Below the pieces are notes generated by a model. That model saw only the letters and a program-made list of their open reading frames with translations. It had not been told where the DNA came from and ran no database searches. A DNA stretch of 32,000 bases from an uncultured Opitutales bacterium (lineage in GTDB: Bacteria > Verrucomicrobiota > Verrucomicrobiia > Opitutales > Intestinicryptomonadaceae), in contig CAKTSY010000003.1 in the NCBI GenBank assembly GCA_934613415.1, positions 150,001 to 182,000 of the forward strand. Reading direction: 5' to 3'. Shown here one piece after another: positions 4,012 to 29,106 of this stretch (position 1 is the stretch's first letter; the number at the start of each line of letters is the position of its first letter). Both the position numbers and the translations under genes were made by a program.

Positions 4012-5202
4012 TTATAGTGCATTTAATGTTTTGTCTACAATAGTCAAAGCCTTTTTAATTTCGGCTTCCTTTACTATAAGCGGCGGCAAAAACCTTACCG
4101 CGTTCGAGCCTGCGGGAATCGTTATAAGCGAATTTACCAGCAAGGCCTTTACTAAGTCGGCGTTTTTGTAGGGCTCGTTAAGCAAAAGACCTATCATAAG
4201 GCCAACGCCCCTTGCGCATTTTACCTTTTCGGGATATTTTTTTGCGAGTTTTTGCAAACCGTTTAAAAGCAGTTTTCCGCATTTTGCCGCGTTTTCGGCA
4301 AGCTTGCGTTTTTTAACCGCCTTTACAACCGAAAGCGCAACGGCGCATGCCAGCGGGTTGCCGCCGAACGTAGTTCCGTGCGTGCCGGGGGTAAAGAGCT
4401 TTGCAAGCTTGTCGCTCATTAAAACCGCGCCTATGGGGAAGCCGCCGCCCAAGCCCTTTGCCATGGAAATTGCGTCGGGTTTTACGCCGAATTTTTGGAA
4501 CGCAAAAAACTTGCCGGTGCGCGCAACGCCGCATTGAACTTCGTCGAAGAACAAAAGCGTCGAATACTTGCTGCACAAGCTGCGCAATTCCTTAAGGAAC
4601 TTTACGTCTACTGGCAAAACGCCGCTTTCGCCCTGAATGGGCTCTATCAAAACGGCGGCAATGTCTTTTTTTGCAAGCTTTGCCTTAAAGGATTTTATGT
4701 CGTTAAACTCGGCCGTTTCAAAGCCCTCCAGCAAAGGCGAAAAGTGCTTTTGTATCTTTTCCTGAATTGTGGCCGAAAGCGCGCCCATTGTTCTGCCGTG
4801 AAAGGAATTGCGGGCAACCAAAATTTTGTATCTTTTTACGGGCAAAGTTTCGCCGTAAATACGGGCGGCCTTAATCAAAGCTTCGTTGGCCTCGGTGCCG
4901 CTGTTGCAAAAGAACATTTTGCCGAATTTGGATTCGCCGATAAGGGCTTCGGCCAAATCTGCCTGCGGCACATTTAGGTATAAATTGCTGCAATGGGCAA
5001 CGGTTTGCGCCTGTTTTGTAAGGGCTTTTACCCAGTCTTTGTCGCAATGCCCCAAAATGTTTACGGCAATGCCCGCGCCAAAATCCAGATATTTTTTGCC
5101 CGCTTCGTCGTAGGCGTACATACCCGCGCCTTTGGCTATGCAAATTTGGCGTTCGCCGTAGTTGTTAAGGGTATATTTCTTAAATTTTTCCTTAGTGTTC
5201 AT
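4012..5202 (-). CDS. argD: Acetylornithine aminotransferase (class III PLP aminotransferase)
   Basis: FFDEVQCGVARTGKFFA and the PLP-lysine region DAISMAKGLGGGFPIGA. I place the start at ATG 5202 (MNTKEKFKKYTLNNYGER). This lies 7 nt after the argB stop (5192-5194). The track start at 5259 would overlap argB by 68 nt. Confidence 0.9.
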   Translation of the reverse strand: MNTKEKFKKYTLNNYGERQICIAKGAGMYAYDEAGKKYLDFGAGIAVNILGHCDKDWVKALTKQAQTVAHCSNLYLNVPQADLAEALIGESKFGKMFFCNSGTEANEALIKAARIYGETLPVKRYKILVARNSFHGRTMGALSATIQEKIQKHFSPLLEGFETAEFNDIKSFKAKLAKKDIAAVLIEPIQGESGVLPVDVKFLKELRSLCSKYSTLLFFDEVQCGVARTGKFFAFQKFGVKPDAISMAKGLGGGFPIGAVLMSDKLAKLFTPGTHGTTFGGNPLACAVALSVVKAVKKRKLAENAAKCGKLLLNGLQKLAKKYPEKVKCARGVGLMIGLLLNEPYKNADLVKALLVNSLITIPAGSNAVRFLPPLIVKEAEIKKALTIVDKTLNAL

Positions 5203-6094: not shown

Positions 6095-7326
6095 TATTCG
6101 CCCTTATTGAAATCCACATAGGCTTCCGACAAGTCGGTTGTAAGAACCGTCCACGAAAATTCGCCCAAGTTCAAATTCATATTCACGGCAAAGCTTTTTT
6201 CGGCAACTTCCTTTTTCCACAAAGGCTTGTTGTTTGCCAAAACCTCGCCCTTGACTATTACGGGAACGTTGTTGTAGGCCAAGTCCATTTTCTGGAAGTC
6301 TATGCCCGTTTTTGCGTAGCCTGCAGCGTCTACAAGCCTGCCCCAGTTGGGGTCGCCGCCGTACCAGGCCGACTTTACCAACATGGAATTTGCAATAGAC
6401 TTTGCTATTTTGCGCGCCTGCTCTTCGCTTTTTGCGCCCGAAATGTTTACTTGAACAACCTTTGTAATTTTTTCGCCGTCGGCAACAATGTGCGAAGCCA
6501 AATACGAGCACACTGTTTGCAGAGCCTCCTTAAAGGCTTCAAGCAAGTCGGCATTGTCGTCTATCTTAACGTGGCTTTGGCCGTTGCACAAAACCAAAAC
6601 GGTGTCGTTTGTGCTCATATCGCCGTCTACGCTAATGCAGTTAAAGCTCATTTCAACCGACTTCGACAGACATTCCTTAAGCAGCTTTTGCGAGATTTCG
6701 GCGTCGCAGGCAATGTAGGCAAGCATTGTGGCCATGTTAGGCTCTATCATGCCCGCGCCCTTTGCCATTGCACCCATGTGGAATTCTTTGCCGCCGCAGT
6801 TTACGGTTACGGAAATCGTCTTTTTACGGGTGTCGGAAGTGAGAATTGCCGAGGCCGCCGCAACGCCGCTTTCCTGCGAATTCGAGATTTTCGAAACCGC
6901 TTCCTTTATGCCCTTTTCGATTTTCTCCATGGGCATAAATTCGCCTATTCTGCCCGTAGAGGAAACCAAAACCTCGTTTTCGAGCAGGCCGAATTCTTTT
7001 GCAACCAATGCGCACATTTTGCGGGCATCGTCCATACCCCTTTGCCCCGTGCAGGCGTTTGCGTTGCCGCTGTTGGCAATAACAGCCCCTATTTTGGGAG
7101 ACTTCCAAAGGTGTTCAATGTCTACATAAACGGGGGCGGCCTTTACGTCGTTGGTGGTAAATGTGCCTGCCGCCGTTGCAAGAACGTCGCTCTTAATAAT
7201 TGCGGTGTCCAGCCTGCCGTCGTTCTTGTTGCGAATGTCGCTAGAAACGCCTGCAACTTTAAAACCCAAAACGTCTACAATGCCTGCGCTGTCTTCCTTA
7301 ACAGTTAAAGTATAATTCTTAGCCAT
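6094..7326 (-). CDS. argJ: Bifunctional glutamate N-acetyltransferase / amino-acid acetyltransferase (ornithine acetyltransferase)
   Basis: Autoprocessing-site context GMIEPNMATMLAYIACDA and a typical 410-aa length. Sits between argC and argB. Confidence 0.95.
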   Translation of the reverse strand: MAKNYTLTVKEDSAGIVDVLGFKVAGVSSDIRNKNDGRLDTAIIKSDVLATAAGTFTTNDVKAAPVYVDIEHLWKSPKIGAVIANSGNANACTGQRGMDDARKMCALVAKEFGLLENEVLVSSTGRIGEFMPMEKIEKGIKEAVSKISNSQESGVAAASAILTSDTRKKTISVTVNCGGKEFHMGAMAKGAGMIEPNMATMLAYIACDAEISQKLLKECLSKSVEMSFNCISVDGDMSTNDTVLVLCNGQSHVKIDDNADLLEAFKEALQTVCSYLASHIVADGEKITKVVQVNISGAKSEEQARKIAKSIANSMLVKSAWYGGDPNWGRLVDAAGYAKTGIDFQKMDLAYNNVPVIVKGEVLANNKPLWKKEVAEKSFAVNMNLNLGEFSWTVLTTDLSEAYVDFNKGE

Positions 7327-21688: not shown

Positions 21689-23041
21689 CTATTTTTTAAA
21701 TACGGCGTAGCCTGCGCCGTCGTTATGGGCAGCAGGCAAAACTATGCGGCTTTCAAGTAATTGGGCGCTTCGGGCAAATTCGGCAACGTTTTCGGTATTT
21801 TCGCACGCGTCTATCGAGCATGTAGAAAAAACAATAACCCCGCCCTTTTTCACAAAATTTAAAGCCTTAAAAAACATACGCCTTTGAATTTCGGCACAAT
21901 TATTTATGTCGCTTTCGGTTATGCGATATCTGGCATCGGCGCGGCGGCCCAGCACGCCCGTGTTCGAACAGGGAGCATCTAAAAACACAACGTCGTATTG
22001 CATGGGAACTCCCGCGCTTTCAAGCTTTTGGGCAACGTCGTCTTCCAACAAATCGAACGCAACTTGCTTTGTTTTTAAATTCGAAAATTTGCGAACTGCA
22101 AAATTAGCCTTAAGCGTTTCAAACCTTTTGTTGGGCAAGTCGCAACTGACCAAAAGCGAAGTCGTGTTTTTTTCGGAATTCTTTTTGTTTAAAATGTCGG
22201 CAATGTAGGCGCTTTTGCCGCCGGGGGCTGCGCACAAGTCTAACACATTTTGCCCCGCGCAAAAAGAAACCGCGTTTACGGCAAAACTTGTAGACGGGTC
22301 TTGCGCGTAGGCATAGCCATTTTTAAGCATAAACGAAACGTCGTTAAAACGCTGCGGCCTTACCGCGTAAAAATCGGCAAAAGGAGTCGGCAAAAAGGCG
22401 TCTTTTACCTGCAAAAAAGCGTCGCGCGCCTCGGGCGAATGCGCCACCCTAAAATATACCGATTTTTGCGAATGAAAATCTCTTAAAATTTCTAGCGCCT
22501 TTTCTTCGCCAAACTGCGCTTTAAAACGCTTTGCAAGCCATAGCGGCATTGAATATAGCAAGGCAAAATCTTCAAAGTTTTTTAAATTTTTTCTTAACGA
22601 ATCCAAATAGCCCAAAAATTTTCTTTGGGCTGCATTTACAAGTTTAGACTCGGGCACGCTAAAGAGCGCCTTCGCCGAATTTACGGAGCTGTCGGCGCGT
22701 TTGCAAGCCTTATCATATTCGCAATCAACCAGTTGCGAGCACGCCATACACAAATATGCATATAGTTTCGCCTTCGGCTTTTTATGCAAAAAACCGCTCA
22801 AAAAGTGTTCTACAAGCCCCTTGTTTCGCAGAAAATCCAAAAAGATACATTGACAAACCCGCCTTTCTTCTGTGTTGTAGTGTATAGAATTATAGTGAGT
22901 TGCTATAGCCGTATCGCTTTTGCCGCCGCGGTTAATGTAGCTCGTTATCAACTCCAACGCCGACAATGCGGCTTTTTCGGCGGCGCAGCTTGCACCGTTA
23001 TGAAAGGCTTTATTCATTTTCGGTTGAGGGAAAATGTACAA
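21689..23041 (-). CDS. rsmB: rRNA cytosine-C5 methyltransferase, RsmB/Sun (NOL1/NOP2) family
   Basis: SAM-binding DLCAAPGGKS, the two catalytic-Cys motifs FLDAPCSNTGVLGRR and VFSTCSI, and a NusB-like N-terminal region. An alternative start is ATG 23017 (MNKAFHNG). Confidence 0.85.
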   Translation of the reverse strand: MYIFPQPKMNKAFHNGASCAAEKAALSALELITSYINRGGKSDTAIATHYNSIHYNTEERRVCQCIFLDFLRNKGLVEHFLSGFLHKKPKAKLYAYLCMACSQLVDCEYDKACKRADSSVNSAKALFSVPESKLVNAAQRKFLGYLDSLRKNLKNFEDFALLYSMPLWLAKRFKAQFGEEKALEILRDFHSQKSVYFRVAHSPEARDAFLQVKDAFLPTPFADFYAVRPQRFNDVSFMLKNGYAYAQDPSTSFAVNAVSFCAGQNVLDLCAAPGGKSAYIADILNKKNSEKNTTSLLVSCDLPNKRFETLKANFAVRKFSNLKTKQVAFDLLEDDVAQKLESAGVPMQYDVVFLDAPCSNTGVLGRRADARYRITESDINNCAEIQRRMFFKALNFVKKGGVIVFSTCSIDACENTENVAEFARSAQLLESRIVLPAAHNDGAGYAVFKK

Positions 23042-23100
23042 AATTTTCCCGATTACAACAAAAAAATTTCAAAACAAACAAAAAATCGCAGGTAAAATAT

Positions 23101-25161
23101 ATGGAAGCATCGGCAGTAGCCACAATATTGGGAAAACACCCGAATCTCCAGTCGAAAAAGGAAAAGCTGGAAATTCTAAAGCAGGGAACTTTCTGCATAC
23201 ACAACGCCTGGGGCATTGGTATGGTAACGGCTCTAGACCCTGAAAGCAGCAGGGTTACAATAGACTTCGAAAACAAAAAAGGCCACTCTATGGACATTGC
23301 CTTTTGCGTGGAAAAGCTGCAAATTTTGGAGGACGACAATATTATTGTGCGCAACATAAAAGACAGGGCGGCCGTTGAAGGCGAAATGAAAAACCCCGCC
23401 GAATTTGTTAAGGCGATAATCTCGAAAAAACCCGACTTGTCGATTAGCTCTATAGAGCTTGAACAGATTTTAACCAGACTTTTTGCCGACGAAAAATCGT
23501 ATAAAAACTGGTGGAAAGTTGCCAAGAAAGACTTGGAAAGAGACCCTTCGGTAGGGTGTCCCAAAAAGAAGAACGACCCGTATTTCCTCCGCGCCGAGCT
23601 AAAGACCCCCGAAAGCGAAGCATTGGAAGAATATATGCTTTATAGGGATCCGAAAAAGAAAATAGAATTGGCAGAAAAGTTGCACGCCGTTGCCGAAAAT
23701 GTAGACGAAATTGCCGAAAAGCTCCCCTTAATTAGAGACGAGCTTACCGAGGCAATTAAAAAGGCAAAGGGTTTGACGCAAGCCGACAGGCTTAGAGGCA
23801 TTTGGGTAAGAAACGACTTTATCCGCGATATAGAGCGCAAAAAGTATGTGGAAAAACCCGAAGACAAGCTTAGCCCGGAACAGGCAAAAGAAATAGAAAA
23901 CGAGCTTGAAAAGGTAGAACCGCGTTCGAAGGACATTTTGGCCGAAACCCGCGAAAAGAACGAAAAAGACGGTCTTAACATTTTGGCTCGCAACCTTTGC
24001 CCCGCCTACTACGAAAGGTTTTTGGACCTTCTTACCAGAACCTACGATTCGGAATGGAAAGACATTATAATAGACCTTCTTAAAAATTCGGAGGGCAGGT
24101 TTACAAACGAATGCGTAAACTTCCTTATAGGCAAAGACAGGCAACAATCCAGCAAATTTACCGGCGAAAATATCAACCTAGAAGCAACCGCCAAGACAAA
24201 GAAAATTACCGACGAAAGCAGCTGCCAGCAGTTGGTAAAAGCGGCGTTCCAAAAATGGCTAGACGAGCAGACATTGCACGGCCCCGTAATTTTGTGGATT
24301 GCCAAGAACAGAAATTCCGACAAGCACAAGGCAATGCTTGCAAACCTTATAAACCACAAGCTGCTTAGCGCGCTTTTGTCCGCTATAGACGAAGAGGCTT
24401 TGCTTAGCGATTCGAACCGCAAAATAGCATTGGCCGAAGCCCTTAGCGAAGATAAATCTCTTGTTTTAGACCTTTTGGCAGGCCGCGTTTTAACCGCCGA
24501 CGAGCTTAAGAAAAAGAAGATTTCGCGCGACGAACGCTCGGCTTCCGACGAAACTGCAAGAGACTTGGCTCAAACTTTGTTGCTTAACCAAGGCTTTGAA
24601 GACCTCACCAAAAAATCTATTTTGGCAAGGTTTATAAGATACTCTAAAGAAGTGCAGTCGCTCATATCCAGCGGGGCAAAGCAGGTGGAACGCCTCTTTG
24701 TTTCGAAATGGAGCTTGCAGGCACGCATGGAAGAACTCGACGACATCATCAAAAACCAACAGCCCGCAAGCAAAAAGGCAATCGAAGCCGCACGCGAATT
24801 GGGCGACTTGCGCGAAAACTCCGAATACAAAATGGCGCGCGAACACGACGAAGTTCTTTCGGCTCGCAGAATGGAATTGGAAAGGGATATTTCCATGGCA
24901 GAACCTATCGACTTTTCGCAGGTTTCGACAGACCGCGTAAACATCGGCTCGGTTGTTACATTGCAAGACCCCGACGGCAAACAGCATGTATACACCATTT
25001 TGGGCGCGTGGGATTCGGATACCGACAAGAACATATTCTCGTACAAGACACCTATTGCGCAGGCTATGATGGAAAAGACCGTAGGCGACACATTCGAAAC
25101 AAACGTAGAAGGCCACAAGACTTCCTACAAGATTTTGAAGATAGACCGCTACGTTCCCTAG
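23101..25161 (+). CDS. greA: Long-form Gre-family transcript cleavage factor (686 aa: 533-aa N-terminal extension plus a canonical GreA module)
   Basis: The C-terminal 153 aa (24700-25158) align motif by motif with GreA: ARELGDLRENSEYKMAREH (acidic finger tip), VNIGSVVTLQD, YTILG, SYKTPIAQAMMEKTVGD. I place the start at ATG 23101 (MEASAVATILGK). The track start 22966 would overlap the divergent rsmB-like gene. Confidence 0.85.
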   Translation: MEASAVATILGKHPNLQSKKEKLEILKQGTFCIHNAWGIGMVTALDPESSRVTIDFENKKGHSMDIAFCVEKLQILEDDNIIVRNIKDRAAVEGEMKNPAEFVKAIISKKPDLSISSIELEQILTRLFADEKSYKNWWKVAKKDLERDPSVGCPKKKNDPYFLRAELKTPESEALEEYMLYRDPKKKIELAEKLHAVAENVDEIAEKLPLIRDELTEAIKKAKGLTQADRLRGIWVRNDFIRDIERKKYVEKPEDKLSPEQAKEIENELEKVEPRSKDILAETREKNEKDGLNILARNLCPAYYERFLDLLTRTYDSEWKDIIIDLLKNSEGRFTNECVNFLIGKDRQQSSKFTGENINLEATAKTKKITDESSCQQLVKAAFQKWLDEQTLHGPVILWIAKNRNSDKHKAMLANLINHKLLSALLSAIDEEALLSDSNRKIALAEALSEDKSLVLDLLAGRVLTADELKKKKISRDERSASDETARDLAQTLLLNQGFEDLTKKSILARFIRYSKEVQSLISSGAKQVERLFVSKWSLQARMEELDDIIKNQQPASKKAIEAARELGDLRENSEYKMAREHDEVLSARRMELERDISMAEPIDFSQVSTDRVNIGSVVTLQDPDGKQHVYTILGAWDSDTDKNIFSYKTPIAQAMMEKTVGDTFETNVEGHKTSYKILKIDRYVP

Positions 25162-25182
25162 TTTTTACAACAACATTTAAGC

Positions 25183-25212
25183 AAAAAGAGCGCATTTTAA
25201 TGCGCTCTTTTT
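25183..25212. terminator. Bidirectional rho-independent terminator between convergent greA-like and fic
   Basis: AAAAAGAGCGCATT (25183-25196), tt, AATGCGCTCTTTTT (25199-25212) is perfectly self-complementary, with a T7 run on the plus strand and T5 on the minus strand. Confidence 0.8.
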
Positions 25213-25245
25213 TTGTGTATATGCCAACAATTTTTTTGGTTTGCC

Positions 25246-26352
25246 CTACAAGCTTTCGGTTAAATCGAGCAGGTCTTTTAAAAAATATACTGTTTTTGCG
25301 CGCCCTGCCCCCTTTTCGTATACTGATATAATTTTCCTATCTATCAATTTTTGAAAAATGTTATACATTGTAGCTTTTGATGGATTGCTGGAAACTTTTA
25401 GCGACGATTGCGTAAACATAGGGCTTGCAACCATTGCGTCTAGCAACGGCACTGCGTGCTGCGACGAAGTTGCCTCTATTATCGAAATCTTGGTCTTTTC
25501 GTAATAGGCTATTATGTCTTTGGCAATTTTATAGTTTTTGTCGGCCTGCCATTTTATCGCACCCAAGAAAAACTCTATCCACTGTGTCCAGTTGCCGCAA
25601 TCGGTTATGTTGCGCAAAGAGTCTTTATATGCCATTTCGTTCTTATCCAAATACTGGCTTATGTATAGCGACGGCGTTGCAATAATATTTTTCTTATATA
25701 AAAACAGCGGAACAAGCATTCTGCCCAACCTGCCGTTTCCGTCGCAAAAGGGGTGTATTATCTCGAATTGCGCGTGCAAAACGGCGGTTTGTGCCAAAAC
25801 GTCTTTATCGTTTATGCTAAGGTAATCTATAAAATTATCCATATATTCGGGCACAATAAGAGTGTCGGGCGGAACATAGCGCGCGTTTTCTATACCGCCG
25901 CTTTTCGAGCCTATGTAGTTTTGAATTTCCCTTATTTGCCCCGGGTTTTTGGATTTGCCGCGAACGCCGTCTAGTAAAATCGTGTGCAACCCCTTTATTA
26001 ACGAAAGCGAAATCTCGCGGTTTTCCAGCGATTCGGCTCCAGATGTAAGAGCTTTTTTATAGTTCAAAACTTCGTTAATATCGTCTTTTTTTTCGTCCGA
26101 ATCTTCGCCAATGTTCGCCTGATATTTTAAAATGTCTATAGTGTCGGCTTGCGTTCCCTCTATTTTGCTAGACAACACAGCCTCGTTATCGACAAGCGGC
26201 GAAAGCAATAAGTTGGGGTTTGGCATTACGTTTAAAATGCCGTTAAAATTCGACACTGCCCTATTAGCCTCGCCCATTTTCGGCACAAGACTAGTCCAAT
26301 CTATACAGTTTAATGGAAGTTTTTGCGGAATATACGGTTTCATTGTGTCCAT
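25246..26352 (-). CDS. fic: Fic-family protein (AMPylase-type), class II with an intramolecular inhibitory motif
   Basis: Fic active-site motif HPFCDGNGRLGR (25720-25755) and an N-terminal inhibitory-helix motif S-S-K-I-E-G (26155-26172) fitting [ST]xxxE[GN]. About 368 aa. The track start 26406 is a GTG inside the repeat array. ATGs at 26352 (MDTMKPY) or 26343 (MKPY) are more plausible. Confidence 0.9.
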   Translation of the reverse strand: MDTMKPYIPQKLPLNCIDWTSLVPKMGEANRAVSNFNGILNVMPNPNLLLSPLVDNEAVLSSKIEGTQADTIDILKYQANIGEDSDEKKDDINEVLNYKKALTSGAESLENREISLSLIKGLHTILLDGVRGKSKNPGQIREIQNYIGSKSGGIENARYVPPDTLIVPEYMDNFIDYLSINDKDVLAQTAVLHAQFEIIHPFCDGNGRLGRMLVPLFLYKKNIIATPSLYISQYLDKNEMAYKDSLRNITDCGNWTQWIEFFLGAIKWQADKNYKIAKDIIAYYEKTKISIIEATSSQHAVPLLDAMVASPMFTQSSLKVSSNPSKATMYNIFQKLIDRKIISVYEKGAGRAKTVYFLKDLLDLTESL

Positions 26353-26373
26353 AATATACAACAATCGTAAGTT

Positions 26374-26591
26374 TTGTGTCAAGCAAAAGGCTGTTTGGTT
26401 AGACACAACGGGCTTTGTGTTTATCGAAACGACATTTTATTAGACACAACTGGCTTTGTGTCTAATAGAATAAACGCTAGCAAATTTGTGTCTAACGAAA
26501 GTGCATTTGGTTAGACACAAAATAGTTTGTGTCTAATCTGTTAGACGCTACAGGCTTTGTGTCTAACGAACTCGGGTTTGGTTAGACACAA
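26374..26591. repeat. Phased array of 12 TTAGACACAA / TTGTGTCTAA half-sites, including a 71-bp tandem duplication
   Basis: F = TTAGACACAA at 26399, 26440, 26511, 26541 (ttagacGcTa) and 26582. R = TTGTGTCTAA at 26374 (ttgtgtcAaG), 26415 (ttgtgtTtaT), 26456, 26486, 26527 and 26557, plus a weak ttgtgtcc at 26344. There are four F-N6-R palindromes: 26399-26424, 26440-26465 (perfect), 26511-26536 (perfect) and 26541-26566. There are three R-N15-F units whose spacers end in TTTGG. Segments 26440-26510 and 26511-26581 are colinear 71-bp copies. Same-orientation spacing alternates between 41 and 30 bp. Confidence 0.9.
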
Positions 26592-26648
26592 AACAAAACT
26601 TATAAAACTTAAAGCGTTTAAAAACTCAAAAAAAAGCCAACAGGAAGG

Positions 26649-27755
26649 CTAAAGCAATTCTTTTACTGCCTCTTCGCCGCCCGAATGCATAATATTGTAG
26701 ATGCAGTTTCTTAACACGCGCATTCTGTGGCGGTTGTCTAGCGATTTTATAAGCTCTACGCTGGCAGTGCCGTCGCCTGCCATTGCAAATGCGGTTGCCG
26801 CATACATAACATAGTTTACCCTGTCGCGCTTTGTGTCTAAAAACTGCTTTTCGCTTAGCGAAAGCGTTTTGTAGTGCTCATACAAAGCAGCATTTCCGTT
26901 TGTCTTTGCAACAAAAGCATATAAGGGGAAAGACGCATTATACCAATTTTTGCCCTTTTGCGATACCTGAAAAACCCAAACCGCTTTTATAGCCTTTTCC
27001 TCCGACCTTTTTATATCTTCGGGGCTGTCGCTTTTTGGAAAAAAGTCGTAAAACCAAAACAGACACCAAAACATTACCCTTGTTTCCTTGTCCCAAGTAG
27101 CGCGGTTTTTAACCCAACTTTTCCTTAAATAATCCATAAGCGGCTTATTTTTTGTCTGCCAATAAAGCTCTAGAAGTCTTTCGTTAGACCAGTTGGATTT
27201 CCTAAGCAGGTTTGAAAAAGCTTCAAAATTGTTTGTGTCGGCCAAAATGCGCATAACTTGGGCGGTTTGGCGCATCGACACCATATTTTGGCAGGCATCT
27301 ACCGCTTTTTGCGCAAAAATATTTCTTTTTTCAATGTTGCCATTTCCCGCATATATTGCCGAAAGCTTTGCGTATATTAAAGCGGCATAGCCTTTGTTTT
27401 TAAGGAAATTAGCCCTGGAAGCGCAAACTGCAAGCGATGCATTTTTATTTTTTAAGTCGTAATCTATAAGCAAATAGCGGTATAGCGACTGGTTGTAGTC
27501 GCCCTCTTGCACGGTTTGCGGCAAGCCCTTAATTTGCCTTAGATATTTTTGGGCAGCCCTTGCAACTTTTTGGTTATATTCGCCCCTAATTTGCACCAAA
27601 CAATGCTCCAACTCGGGCAAATTTTCGGTTTCGGCGTAATATATGCACATTTGCGCGAGCACGTTGTCTTTGTCGGGACTATACGATTTTTTTATATCTA
27701 GCCAAACTAGCAAAGCAAACAAGCAACATGCAACAAGCAATAGTTTTTTAAGCAT
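26649..27755 (-). CDS. Membrane-anchored all-alpha hypothetical protein, translationally coupled to the Wzy_C-like gene
   Basis: ATG at 27755 overlaps the upstream stop (27748-27750) in ATGCTTAA. N-terminal anchor MLKKLLLVACCLFALLVWL, with the rest predicted helical and carrying no motif I recognise. The track extension to 27863 would overlap the upstream gene by more than 100 nt and encodes C/W/R-rich junk. Confidence 0.7.
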   Translation of the reverse strand: MLKKLLLVACCLFALLVWLDIKKSYSPDKDNVLAQMCIYYAETENLPELEHCLVQIRGEYNQKVARAAQKYLRQIKGLPQTVQEGDYNQSLYRYLLIDYDLKNKNASLAVCASRANFLKNKGYAALIYAKLSAIYAGNGNIEKRNIFAQKAVDACQNMVSMRQTAQVMRILADTNNFEAFSNLLRKSNWSNERLLELYWQTKNKPLMDYLRKSWVKNRATWDKETRVMFWCLFWFYDFFPKSDSPEDIKRSEEKAIKAVWVFQVSQKGKNWYNASFPLYAFVAKTNGNAALYEHYKTLSLSEKQFLDTKRDRVNYVMYAATAFAMAGDGTASVELIKSLDNRHRMRVLRNCIYNIMHSGGEEAVKELL

Positions 27756-29106
27756 TTTTGCCCCCTCTCGAAAGCGAAGTTGCAGCCAGCACCAGCGCAA
27801 CCGCAAAGAAAACCATAACCGGCAAAAAGTGCATGGCAATATCAACACTACAGTGCATAGCACACAGCCCTGCCGACGCCAACAGCATGTAGTTTTCGGC
27901 CTTTAAATTTTTCAGGTTGCCAAAAAGCAAAATCGCATAGGCAACCCCGCTACCGAAAATACCCAATAGTCCCAAAAAGCCAAACTCTATAAAATATTCT
28001 AAAATATCGCTATGCGCCCTTTCGGGAACCGAAATTTTTGCGCCGCCTACTTTAAGCAACTCTTTTTTTGCCTTTACAGGCAGCGCATATTTGCAGCATT
28101 CGCCGCCAACGCCCCACAGCGGGTTTTCGCAAATCAAGGCAATATCTAGTTTATGGAACTGCAACCTGGAAGAAAACGAACCGCTTAACTGCATGCGTTT
28201 TGGTTTTGCGCTTTCGCCCGAAAGGCGGTGCGCCACCTCGTTATAGCCCAAAAAAGCAACGCCCAAAGAGCACATTGCCACAACAAAAGTTGCTGCCGCC
28301 ATATTCATTGCGCGCCTTAAAAAGACATATAGCGCAATAAGTGCAAAAACGGCGCAATTTAGCGCGGCAAATCCCATCGCCCCAAAAGATTCAGATTTAA
28401 ATGCCCCAACCGCACAAACTGCCGCCGCAAATAGAAATAATATACAGCTAAAAATATGCCTTCTTTTTGCGTGGTAAATAAGCAGACTAAAACAAAAGCC
28501 CAGCCCCAAATTTATAAAGGCACCCGAAACATTTGCCACAAACGAGTTTGCGTAAAAGTCCGACGTTGCGGCAAATATGCCGTAAAGCCAATCAAATGCA
28601 AAATGTTTTTCTATTATGCCGTAGGCGGCGCACAAAACCCCGCAAAAGGCGGCAAAATTAAGCACATATAGCGAGTTGCCGCGCTTTTTGCATACGCAAT
28701 ATAAACTTAGCACGGTTAAGAAAACCGTTGTTAATTTGCAAAGGCTTGCCAACGCATTTACGTTTTCGGCGGGCGTTTTTACAGACTTCGGCAAAAATGC
28801 AATGTGGGGCAAATTGTTAAGCAAAAAGTAGCCGTCGGCTATCTCGAATTCGGCGTAGCAGTTGAAATATTGCACAACACAAACGGCCGCGGTATATAGC
28901 GCGCAAAGCGCAATGCGCTTTTCAAACACGCTTGGACCAGTTTTGCCGAAAGCCGCCGGCAAAAACGCCAAAATTGCAGCCAAAAAGCATGGGAACACAA
29001 AAATTTCGCGCGAATTTGGCGCCCAAAATGCGCAAACAAAAAGCGAAAAAAACAACAAAATAAGGCTTATTTTGTTCTGTGTTGGCGATATTTTGGCGTT
29101 GTCCAT
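27748..29106 (-). CDS. O-antigen ligase / polymerase-like (Wzy_C family) polytopic membrane protein
   Basis: Many hydrophobic segments throughout. Signature loop and helix PERAHSDILEYFIEFGFLGLLGIF, typical of Wzy_C/WaaL/PglL-type proteins. The track start 29118 is a TTG; ATG 29106 (MDNAKISPTQNK) is preferred. Confidence 0.8.
   Translation of the reverse strand: MDNAKISPTQNKISLILLFFSLFVCAFWAPNSREIFVFPCFLAAILAFLPAAFGKTGPSVFEKRIALCALYTAAVCVVQYFNCYAEFEIADGYFLLNNLPHIAFLPKSVKTPAENVNALASLCKLTTVFLTVLSLYCVCKKRGNSLYVLNFAAFCGVLCAAYGIIEKHFAFDWLYGIFAATSDFYANSFVANVSGAFINLGLGFCFSLLIYHAKRRHIFSCILFLFAAAVCAVGAFKSESFGAMGFAALNCAVFALIALYVFLRRAMNMAAATFVVAMCSLGVAFLGYNEVAHRLSGESAKPKRMQLSGSFSSRLQFHKLDIALICENPLWGVGGECCKYALPVKAKKELLKVGGAKISVPERAHSDILEYFIEFGFLGLLGIFGSGVAYAILLFGNLKNLKAENYMLLASAGLCAMHCSVDIAMHFLPVMVFFAVALVLAATSLSRGGKNA

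Follow-up and report, generated by a model that had tools for sequence, protein, structure and literature searches.

Phased half-sites at the promoter of a SoFic-type fic gene in an uncultured Opitutales bacterium: a probable autoregulatory operator array

Why should a gene for one AMPylating Fic enzyme be preceded by more than a dozen copies of a single 10-bp sequence? The question is raised by a 32,000-nt stretch of DNA from an uncultured Opitutales bacterium (assembly GCA_934613415.1, contig CAKTSY010000003.1, positions 150,001 to 182,000; hereafter, the window), in which a dense array of half-sites in both orientations lies between a fic gene and the gene upstream of it. An earlier sequence-only reading of the window had noticed the array and offered three explanations, namely a cooperative operator possibly bound by the C-terminal domain of Fic, an iteron or centromere-like relic of a mobile replicon, and a repetitive extragenic palindrome or bacterial interspersed mosaic element (REP/BIME) or a multi-hairpin RNA. 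Based on the results below, we suggest that the array is probably an operator of the fic promoter to which Fic itself binds through its winged helix, and that it was enlarged from four to 13 sites; this proposal draws on sequence comparison, a structural model and analogy with related proteins. The feature is real and under selection, and it is almost certainly regulatory.

The half-site array and its conservation in Opitutales

All coordinates are those of the whole window; F denotes TTAGACACAA and R denotes TTGTGTCTAA in plus-strand notation, and a prime marks a degenerate site. Eight exact 10-mers were found, four in the F orientation (at 26399, 26440, 26511 and 26582) and four in the R orientation (at 26456, 26486, 26527 and 26557), where about 0.0004 exact matches would be expected in the 193 bp concerned (26399–26591). 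With up to one mismatch allowed, the whole window holds 10 matches, compared with a mean of 1.9 in dinucleotide shuffles, and none of 100 shuffles reached 10. Three further sites carry two mismatches each (TTGTGTCAAG at 26374, TTGTGTTTAT at 26415 and TTAGACGCTA at 26541), and one carries four (ATAAACGCTA at 26470). The sequence-only reading had counted 12 copies; eight of these are indeed exact, the other four make the count generous, and a 13th site, which is also degenerate and lies at the fic start codon, had been overlooked. Altogether, eight exact and five degenerate sites occupy positions 26343–26591, and the gaps between them are 15, 6 or 4 bp, except for the 21 bp preceding the start-codon site. 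The features of the array are the following:

26374–26591, no strand assigned: proposed operator array of 12 half-sites in the order R'-15-F-6-R'-15-F-6-R-4-F'-6-R-15-F-6-R-4-F'-6-R-15-F
26343–26352, minus strand: start-codon half-site, the 13th; plus-strand TTGTGTCCAT, fic-strand ATGGACACAA, two mismatches; covers both candidate ATG codons
26399–26408, plus strand: exact half-site TTAGACACAA, which pairs with the −35 site over a 15-bp spacer
26415–26449, no strand assigned: R'-N15-F unit, TTGTGTTTAT ... TTAGACACAA, the fourth R-N15-F unit of the array
26440–26510, no strand assigned: first full 71-bp unit, F-6-R-4-F'-6-R-15, from Tandem Repeats Finder (TRF) and unit comparison
26511–26581, no strand assigned: second full 71-bp unit, from the same two analyses
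26582–26591, plus strand: distal exact half-site, which closes the last R-N15-F unit (26557–26591)

Most of the geometry first described for this array was borne out. The two perfect F-N6-R palindromes (26440–26465 and 26511–26536) are present, and so are the three R-N15-F units in which TTTGG closes the spacer, to which the unit at 26415–26449 must be added. The same-orientation spacings of 41 and 30 bp and the distances of the array to the fic ATG (about 20 nt) and to the stop codon of the upstream gene (about 58 nt) are also correct. The reported 71-bp tandem duplication was recovered by TRF as a period of 71 bp with 2.5 copies and 77% matches. The two full units have 51 of 71 bases in common, and these are unevenly distributed: the three strong half-sites are identical at 30 of 30 positions, the short spacers at 3 of 16, which indicates that the duplication is old and that the half-sites have been kept by selection. 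The earlier statement that all sites share one helical face is true only locally; since 71 bp correspond to 6.76 helical turns, each successive unit is out of phase by roughly a quarter turn, and the claim fails over the array as a whole. In agreement with the sequence-only reading, the array is not a CRISPR (clustered regularly interspaced short palindromic repeats): the unit is 10 bp long, the orientation is inverted, the gaps are 4, 6 or 15 bp, and no cas genes are among the Pfam-annotated neighbours of fic. No structured half-site pairs were found elsewhere in the 32-kb window.

The exact palindrome was then sought in about 186,000 GTDB representative genomes. The scan returned 25 stretches, a number estimated to be near chance level, and the only relevant matches among them were three loci, L006, L014 and L012. 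The first two come from Opitutales metagenome-assembled genomes (MAGs) and have the same flanking genes as the window; in each of these two assemblies, the palindrome occurs at that single locus. Comparison of the orthologous fic loci showed that the arrays of the window, L006 and L014 are colinear and can be aligned site for site. In this three-locus alignment, 77 of 80 half-site columns (96%) are invariant, as opposed to 70 of 119 spacer columns (59%) and 49% of the flanks. The 15-bp spacers nevertheless retain symmetric AAA...TTT tracts in this comparison. Half-site substitutions were found in L006 (TTAGACTCAA and TTAGAAACAA) and in L012 (TGAGACACAA), and none of them is accompanied by a compensating change in the partner site.

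The fic promoter and a module shared with other fic loci

The gene beside the array and its predicted promoter elements are as follows:

25246–26343, minus strand: fic, encoding a SoFic-type class II Fic AMPylase; the product has 365 aa when started at the ATG at 26343 and 368 aa when started at the alternative ATG at 26352
26377–26382, minus strand: putative −35 box TTGACA, inside the proximal half-site CTTGACACAA (26374–26383), from a promoter scan
26353–26358, minus strand: putative −10 box TATATT, directly preceding the ATG, from a promoter scan

The Fic protein contains the Pfam domains Fic_N and Fic, and its translation includes SSKIEG, the inhibitory motif of class II, as well as HPFCDGNGRLGR, the catalytic motif. 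The PADLOC SoFic model PDLC03963 matched at E 2.4e-101 (Fic residues 1–362 against positions 6–358 of 361), and the NCBIfam SoFic equivalog gave 135 bits, below its cut-off of 550; the window protein is thus a member of the SoFic family and not an orthologue of SoFic. In the AlphaFold2 model (mean predicted confidence, pLDDT, 91.8), the C-terminus adopts a winged-helix fold with helices 297–306 and 323–335, a strand at 309–311 and a wing formed by strands 340–343 and 352–354. Foldseek aligned the full model with SoFic (3zcn) at a template-modelling (TM) score of 0.83 over 367 columns; further matches were 7cb8, 7xux (TM 0.64), which is possibly the CccR structure, and 8cil, the DNA-binding CbFic2. 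The predicted promoter, whose −35 box overlaps a half-site, is conserved in L006 and L014.

Fic homologues with 60–66% identity to the window protein are flanked by quite dissimilar housekeeping genes. Upstream of each is an array that follows the same grammar with another half-site (CTATACACAA or CTTTACACAA in L029, CTAAAAACAA or TTAAACGCAA in L027). By eye, the arrays of L027 and L029 end in CTTGAC(A/G)CAA, a −10-like box and the ATG, an arrangement like that of the promoter in the window. Metagenomes supplied 80 further fic loci, whose proteins are 42–60% identical to the window Fic, and many of them carry the module TTGTGTnnnn-N20-TTGTGTnnnn-N15-nnnnACACAA-N20-nnnnACACAA-ATG. In many homologues, the nnnnACACAA site abuts the ATG and is equivalent to the start-codon site of the window. 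Across the 80 loci, the density of TTGTGT/ACACAA cores is 8.5 per kb within 150 bp upstream of fic and 0.47 per kb elsewhere in these loci, an 18-fold difference, and their spacings are quantised at 28–29 bp for the dyad, 30 bp for the same orientation and 58–59 bp. The module occurs with fic across several phyla and in unrelated neighbourhoods. The length of the four-site module plus a 6-bp joint is 71 bp (10+20+10+15+10+6), which explains the period in the window; the same period was also seen, independently, in the gammaproteobacterial locus L012. The outer 4-nt extension of the core is symmetric inside a locus and varies between lineages, and TG-type extensions accompany an Arg in the recognition helix.

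Two homologous loci stand apart from this pattern. The region upstream of a Fic homologue with 51% identity (L034, 2880–2975) has only two palindromes, of another sequence (TGACATT-N8-AATGTCA), which shows that the recognised core can change completely within the Fic family. A supposed 10-site array at L058 (49–309), also upstream of a Fic homologue, was rejected; it is a 105-bp tandem repeat (2.5 copies, 96% identical) with a sequence unrelated to the TTGTGT module.

Outside the array proper, the following two features were noted:

26831–26840, minus strand: solitary exact half-site, plus-strand TTGTGTCTAA (11-mer TTTGTGTCTAA), in the 3' part of the upstream open reading frame (ORF), 239 bp past the array
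26592–26651, minus strand: AT-rich linker between the array and the upstream gene, with 26–30% GC; includes the stop codon of that gene (26649–26651)

The solitary site is exact in L006 (7632–7641), and L014 has a match with one mismatch at 5154, which probably corresponds to it. The solitary site could have an auxiliary or looping role, or coding constraint might account for its preservation. A lone ACACAA core on the fic strand at 25213–25218 (ATATACACAA), located 28 nt past the fic stop codon and just before a terminator hairpin, probably reflects chance, for which the expectation is about 7%, and its extension differs from TTAG. In the linker, RNA folding gave a weak hairpin, AGCC-N8-GGCT with a T8 tract after it. 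It is below the length that the terminator scan detects and could tentatively be a terminator.

According to Pfam, the neighbourhood of fic consists of rsmB, a greA fusion, a gene without an assignment and a Wzy ligase gene. The gene directly upstream (26649–27758, minus strand) has no known domain, and the O-antigen-ligase-like (Wzy ligase) gene comes next. On the other side, the greA fusion (22966–25161, plus strand, 731 aa) converges on fic, with which it shares a bidirectional terminator hairpin at about 25179–25227. The final ~150 residues of its product form a complete GreA/GreB protein with N- and C-terminal domains, preceded by an extension of ~580 residues without a Pfam match.

The proposed operator and competing explanations

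We propose the following scheme for the control of fic. The enzyme would act as a dimeric class II AMPylase, and its C-terminal winged helix would read the half-site TTAGACACAA, composed of the ACACAA core and a lineage-specific 4-nt extension. The basic binding unit, contacted by one dimer, may be the widely spaced inverted repeat TTGTGTCTAA-N15-TTAGACACAA, with symmetric A and T tracts in its spacer. Adjacent units are 6 or 4 bp apart, close enough for contact between neighbouring bound dimers. Read on the fic strand, the array ends as R-N15-CTTGACACAA(−35)-N21-ATGGACACAA(ATG), and with this layout, occupancy would cover the −35 box together with the transcription and translation starts and repress fic. 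Through such repression, the toxic enzyme would limit its own amount to a low level. The four-site module of the family would have been enlarged in this Opitutales lineage by tandem duplication of its natural 71-bp length, giving 13 sites and, presumably, a tighter and more cooperative repression or a larger DNA-bound pool of Fic. The operator was the first of the three explanations offered from the sequence alone, and it is the one that we favour: the modelled fold, the recurring grammar, the overlap with the −35 box and the binding of the relatives CccR and SoFic to their own promoters all point towards it.

Several observations weigh against this proposal. The 13 sites are an excess for which it gives no explanation, given that four suffice in relatives. 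The window clade lacks the Pfam match to SoFic-like_C (PF21248) that the SoFic clade has, and the C-terminus of the window Fic gives only a weak PadR match. The predicted promoter is a sigma-70-like TTGACA-18-TATATT with 11 of 12 matches to a pattern whose rules are not established for Verrucomicrobiota; it leaves almost no 5' untranslated region, and read-through from the upstream gene might place the array in a transcript. The relation between site and protein is likewise imperfect. In favour of the proposal, the winged helices of loci with the same extension are more alike than the identity of the Fic domains predicts, an excess reached by 0 of 2000 label permutations but uncorrected for ancestry. 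The match between extension and protein is not one-to-one, as the CTTT class has two types of recognition helix. Finally, the Fic of L012 is just 37% identical to the window protein and yet has TTAG sites; this sharing is largely a selection effect of the exact 10-mer search combined with the family-wide 71-bp module length.

The excess of sites is also the starting point for a second explanation, in which Fic is still the binder and which therefore overlaps the operator proposal. Here, the array would serve less as a simple autorepressor site than as a DNA platform for controlling Fic: it would keep a stock of Fic dimers on the DNA and thereby tune their AMPylation or deAMPylation, or it would release them when phage infection changes the state of the DNA, and the module would be a Fic-controlled promoter for neighbouring defence genes. 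We consider this possible but rather unlikely. It would account for 13 sites where four suffice in relatives, and it agrees with published data: both the AMPylation and the DNA binding of SoFic need the dimer (bioRxiv 10.64898/2026.07.09.737422), and the activity of CbFic2 is reportedly switched on by DNA binding (PMC10628234).

The arrangement of other loci supports it, too. In nine metagenomic loci (L045, L068, L069, L076, L077, L090, L095/L096 and L098), a module lies 35–54 bp past the fic stop codon, and L012 has a module downstream of fic at 980–1190. The next gene after the downstream module was typed in seven loci (six of the nine and L012) and is hsdS, hsdM, hsdR, a DNA (N6_N4) methylase, an HSP70-TPR, a HEPN or a DUF3800 gene. 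Several of these modules have a distal half-site TTGTGTATA(A/T) that looks like a −10 box. In L029, arrays of ~115 bp with 95% identity (2860–2990 and 4095–4215) form direct repeats on either side of the fic ORF; the copies diverge immediately past the last half-site, and the downstream one has no convincing −10 box, a point against this explanation. These paired arrays may serve in DNA looping, result from duplication of a promoter module or mark the insertion of a cassette. A small antitoxin ORF like AS1 (PMC12249575) was sought after the downstream modules, and no conserved small ORF was found. Taken from sequence, these arrangements suggest that Fic may regulate neighbouring defence genes or that the arrays may be a DNA-bound reservoir of the enzyme.

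In the window itself, the platform explanation has less to draw on: the array is followed downstream by fic alone, no other array is present, and the reasoning is purely inferential. A broader version of the idea is equally tentative. SoFic-type Fic proteins might be bifunctional, acting as an AMPylating toxin and as the transcription factor of a portable promoter–operator module that governs neighbouring genes (hsdS/hsdM/hsdR, methylases, HEPN and HSP70-TPR) in many defence islands, in the manner of a controller protein, and expanded arrays might serve as a DNA-bound reservoir or sensor that couples dimer occupancy to AMPylation during phage infection.

It is improbable that the sites are bound by another, unlinked host transcription factor, such as a global regulator, with Fic being merely the regulated gene. 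Binding by Fic is itself inferred, and the extension does not strictly track the identity of Fic, which leaves some room for such a factor; the TGTGT core also loosely recalls the CRP half-site TGTGA. However, Fic is the only constant partner of the module across phyla and contexts, and it has a DNA-binding domain of its own. The half-site itself differs from one Fic lineage to another and reads ATGTCGAT in the SoFic clade, a variability that would be incompatible with recognition by a conserved global factor. A CRP-like site in particular was rejected: CRP sites have the form TGTGA-N6-TCACA, which matches neither the N15 spacing nor the N6 spacing with its opposite orientation, and the core shifts between Fic clades.

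For an RNA or single-stranded function, i.e., a 5' leader, a terminator structure or a REP/BIME-like intergenic element, which had been the third of the original explanations, the probability appears very low. The region folds at −89 kcal/mol (z = −5.6), each F-N6-R unit can form a stem of 10–11 bp, and the upstream terminator is weak, making read-through possible; but any set of inverted repeats folds strongly, so this z value is uninformative. An Rfam scan of 25000–28000 gave only sub-threshold chance matches, the best scoring 25.7 bits (gathering score, 120). The predicted promoter is located at the edge next to fic, which places the array upstream of the transcription start. The uncompensated half-site changes in L006 and L012 and the conserved same-orientation sites 30 bp apart, which have no pairing partner, also disagree with a pairing function, and a REP/BIME element is disfavoured by the single locus per related MAG in the genome-wide scan and by the lack of further copies in the window.

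A relic of mobility or replication, whether iterons, a plasmid centromere or recombination sites at the borders of a mobile fic cassette, is just as doubtful: short phased repeat arrays are typical of iterons and parC sites, fic and its array occupy a different chromosomal context in each lineage, and direct array copies flank fic in L029, but the Pfam-annotated neighbourhood in the window is a chromosomal housekeeping setting without rep, par, integrase or transposase genes, the sites are inverted pairs of alternating orientation instead of head-to-tail direct repeats, the array is stable and colinear at the same chromosomal locus in three related genomes, there is no GC-skew switch, and the array always ends in the fic promoter, as a recombination site need not. 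An origin of replication with DnaA boxes was likewise rejected; TTAGACACA matches TTATCCACA at 7 of 9 positions, but the GC skew does not switch and the array travels with fic, not with replication genes.

The remaining candidates came from the database scans and were discarded. The viral palindrome scan gave a single chance match inside a phage ORF. Four Bacteroidetes loci carry another hairpin repeat, in which the 10-mer of the window array occurs only by chance. It is a dispersed repeat of GACnnTTAGACACAA units (L001, 235–317, L016, 187–211 and 1349–1416, and L021, 3854–3878 and 6424–6485, these three from the MAG Cu122P3bin3; L010, 879–937), which occupies the ends of genes on several contigs of a single MAG and looks REP-like. 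L013 and L023 are separate repeat arrays that are not linked to fic. The former, from a Candidatus Atopostipes MAG (7022–7260), comprises six tandem 42-bp units, each a TTAGACACAG-N8-CGTGTCTAA palindrome, and has no adjacent fic; it sits between a small ORF and a putative RNase Y ORF.

If the operator proposal holds, it would bear on a debated matter. SoFic-type Fic enzymes are widespread anti-phage, toxin-like proteins, and how their toxicity is controlled is still debated. The proposal offers a concrete operator code, namely an ACACAA core with a variable 4-nt extension, an R-N15-F dyad, 30-bp phasing and sites at the −35 box and the ATG, all expandable by tandem duplication. Modules that wire neighbouring restriction–modification (R-M) genes to Fic would, if confirmed, represent a new layer of regulation in defence islands.

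Comparison with known systems

SoFic of Shewanella oneidensis (SO_4266) has the same domain architecture and fold as the window Fic. The dimeric, not the monomeric, protein binds the 100 bp upstream of its own start codon, and the motif was left undefined (bioRxiv 10.64898/2026.07.09.737422). For this region, we turned to a Shewanella locus (L115) encoding a protein with 99% identity to SoFic across the 247 aa that could be compared. It contains three ATCGACAT/ATGTCGAT half-sites spaced 12, 29 and 41 bp in the 100 bp and two more just upstream (1363–1481), the spacings of the whole set being 12, 29, 40 and 41 bp, and the locus of a Photorhabdus homologue (L116, 1313–1480) has at least eight such sites with spacings of 30, 40 and 70 bp. 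The phased multi-site design is thus common to the wider family, with a different recognised sequence, and ATCGACAT/ATGTCGAT is a candidate for the SoFic operator motif. The spacings of 29–30, 40–41 and 70 bp in the SoFic clade resemble those in the window. The differences are the half-site itself (ATCGACAT versus TTAGACACAA), the C-terminal PF21248 domain, which is present in SoFic and absent from the window clade, and the genetic setting: the L115 copy stands between hsdR and hsdM of a type I R-M operon, whereas the window fic stands alone.

In type II toxin–antitoxin systems and in the controller (C) proteins of R-M systems, a DNA-binding module acts on palindromic operators in its own promoter and thereby holds a toxic activity low. 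The self-control proposed here would be analogous, and in other loci the module precedes R-M genes; unlike in those systems, the DNA-binding domain is fused to the enzyme, and the window has no separate antitoxin or C gene. Among multi-site cooperative operators, the iteron array of plasmid parC/ParR systems resembles the window in having many short phased sites within ~200 bp beside a regulated promoter. However, it consists of direct repeats one helical turn apart that are bound by a ribbon–helix–helix protein and linked to par genes, while the window array consists of inverted pairs linked to fic.

CccR, a Fic protein with a helix–turn–helix (HTH) domain from Yersinia pseudotuberculosis, represses its own promoter through AGATAATCAT-N26-ATGATAATCT over the −35 and −10 boxes, and its binding requires the dimer and the HTH domain (PMC9755527). 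The domain spacing reported for CccR is 70 Å. The two systems share a Fic enzyme with a C-terminal HTH domain, inverted half-sites of ~10 bp with a long spacer, and an operator over the enzyme's own −35/−10 promoter region, which is predicted in the window; dimer-dependent binding and negative autoregulation are proposed for the window Fic by analogy. They differ in that CccR uses a single 10-N26-10 palindrome of unrelated sequence, and the window has 13 half-sites with gaps of 15, 6 or 4 bp, a 71-bp repeat and a family-wide grammar. The window protein is also nearer to SoFic (TM 0.83) than to 7xux (TM 0.64), and no context of a type VI secretion system is apparent among its Pfam-annotated neighbours. 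Autoregulation of a Fic-HTH protein through widely spaced inverted repeats is thus a kind of control already known from CccR (PMC9755527); what the literature searched does not describe is the phased, expandable, multi-site architecture of the present locus, which extends across the family.

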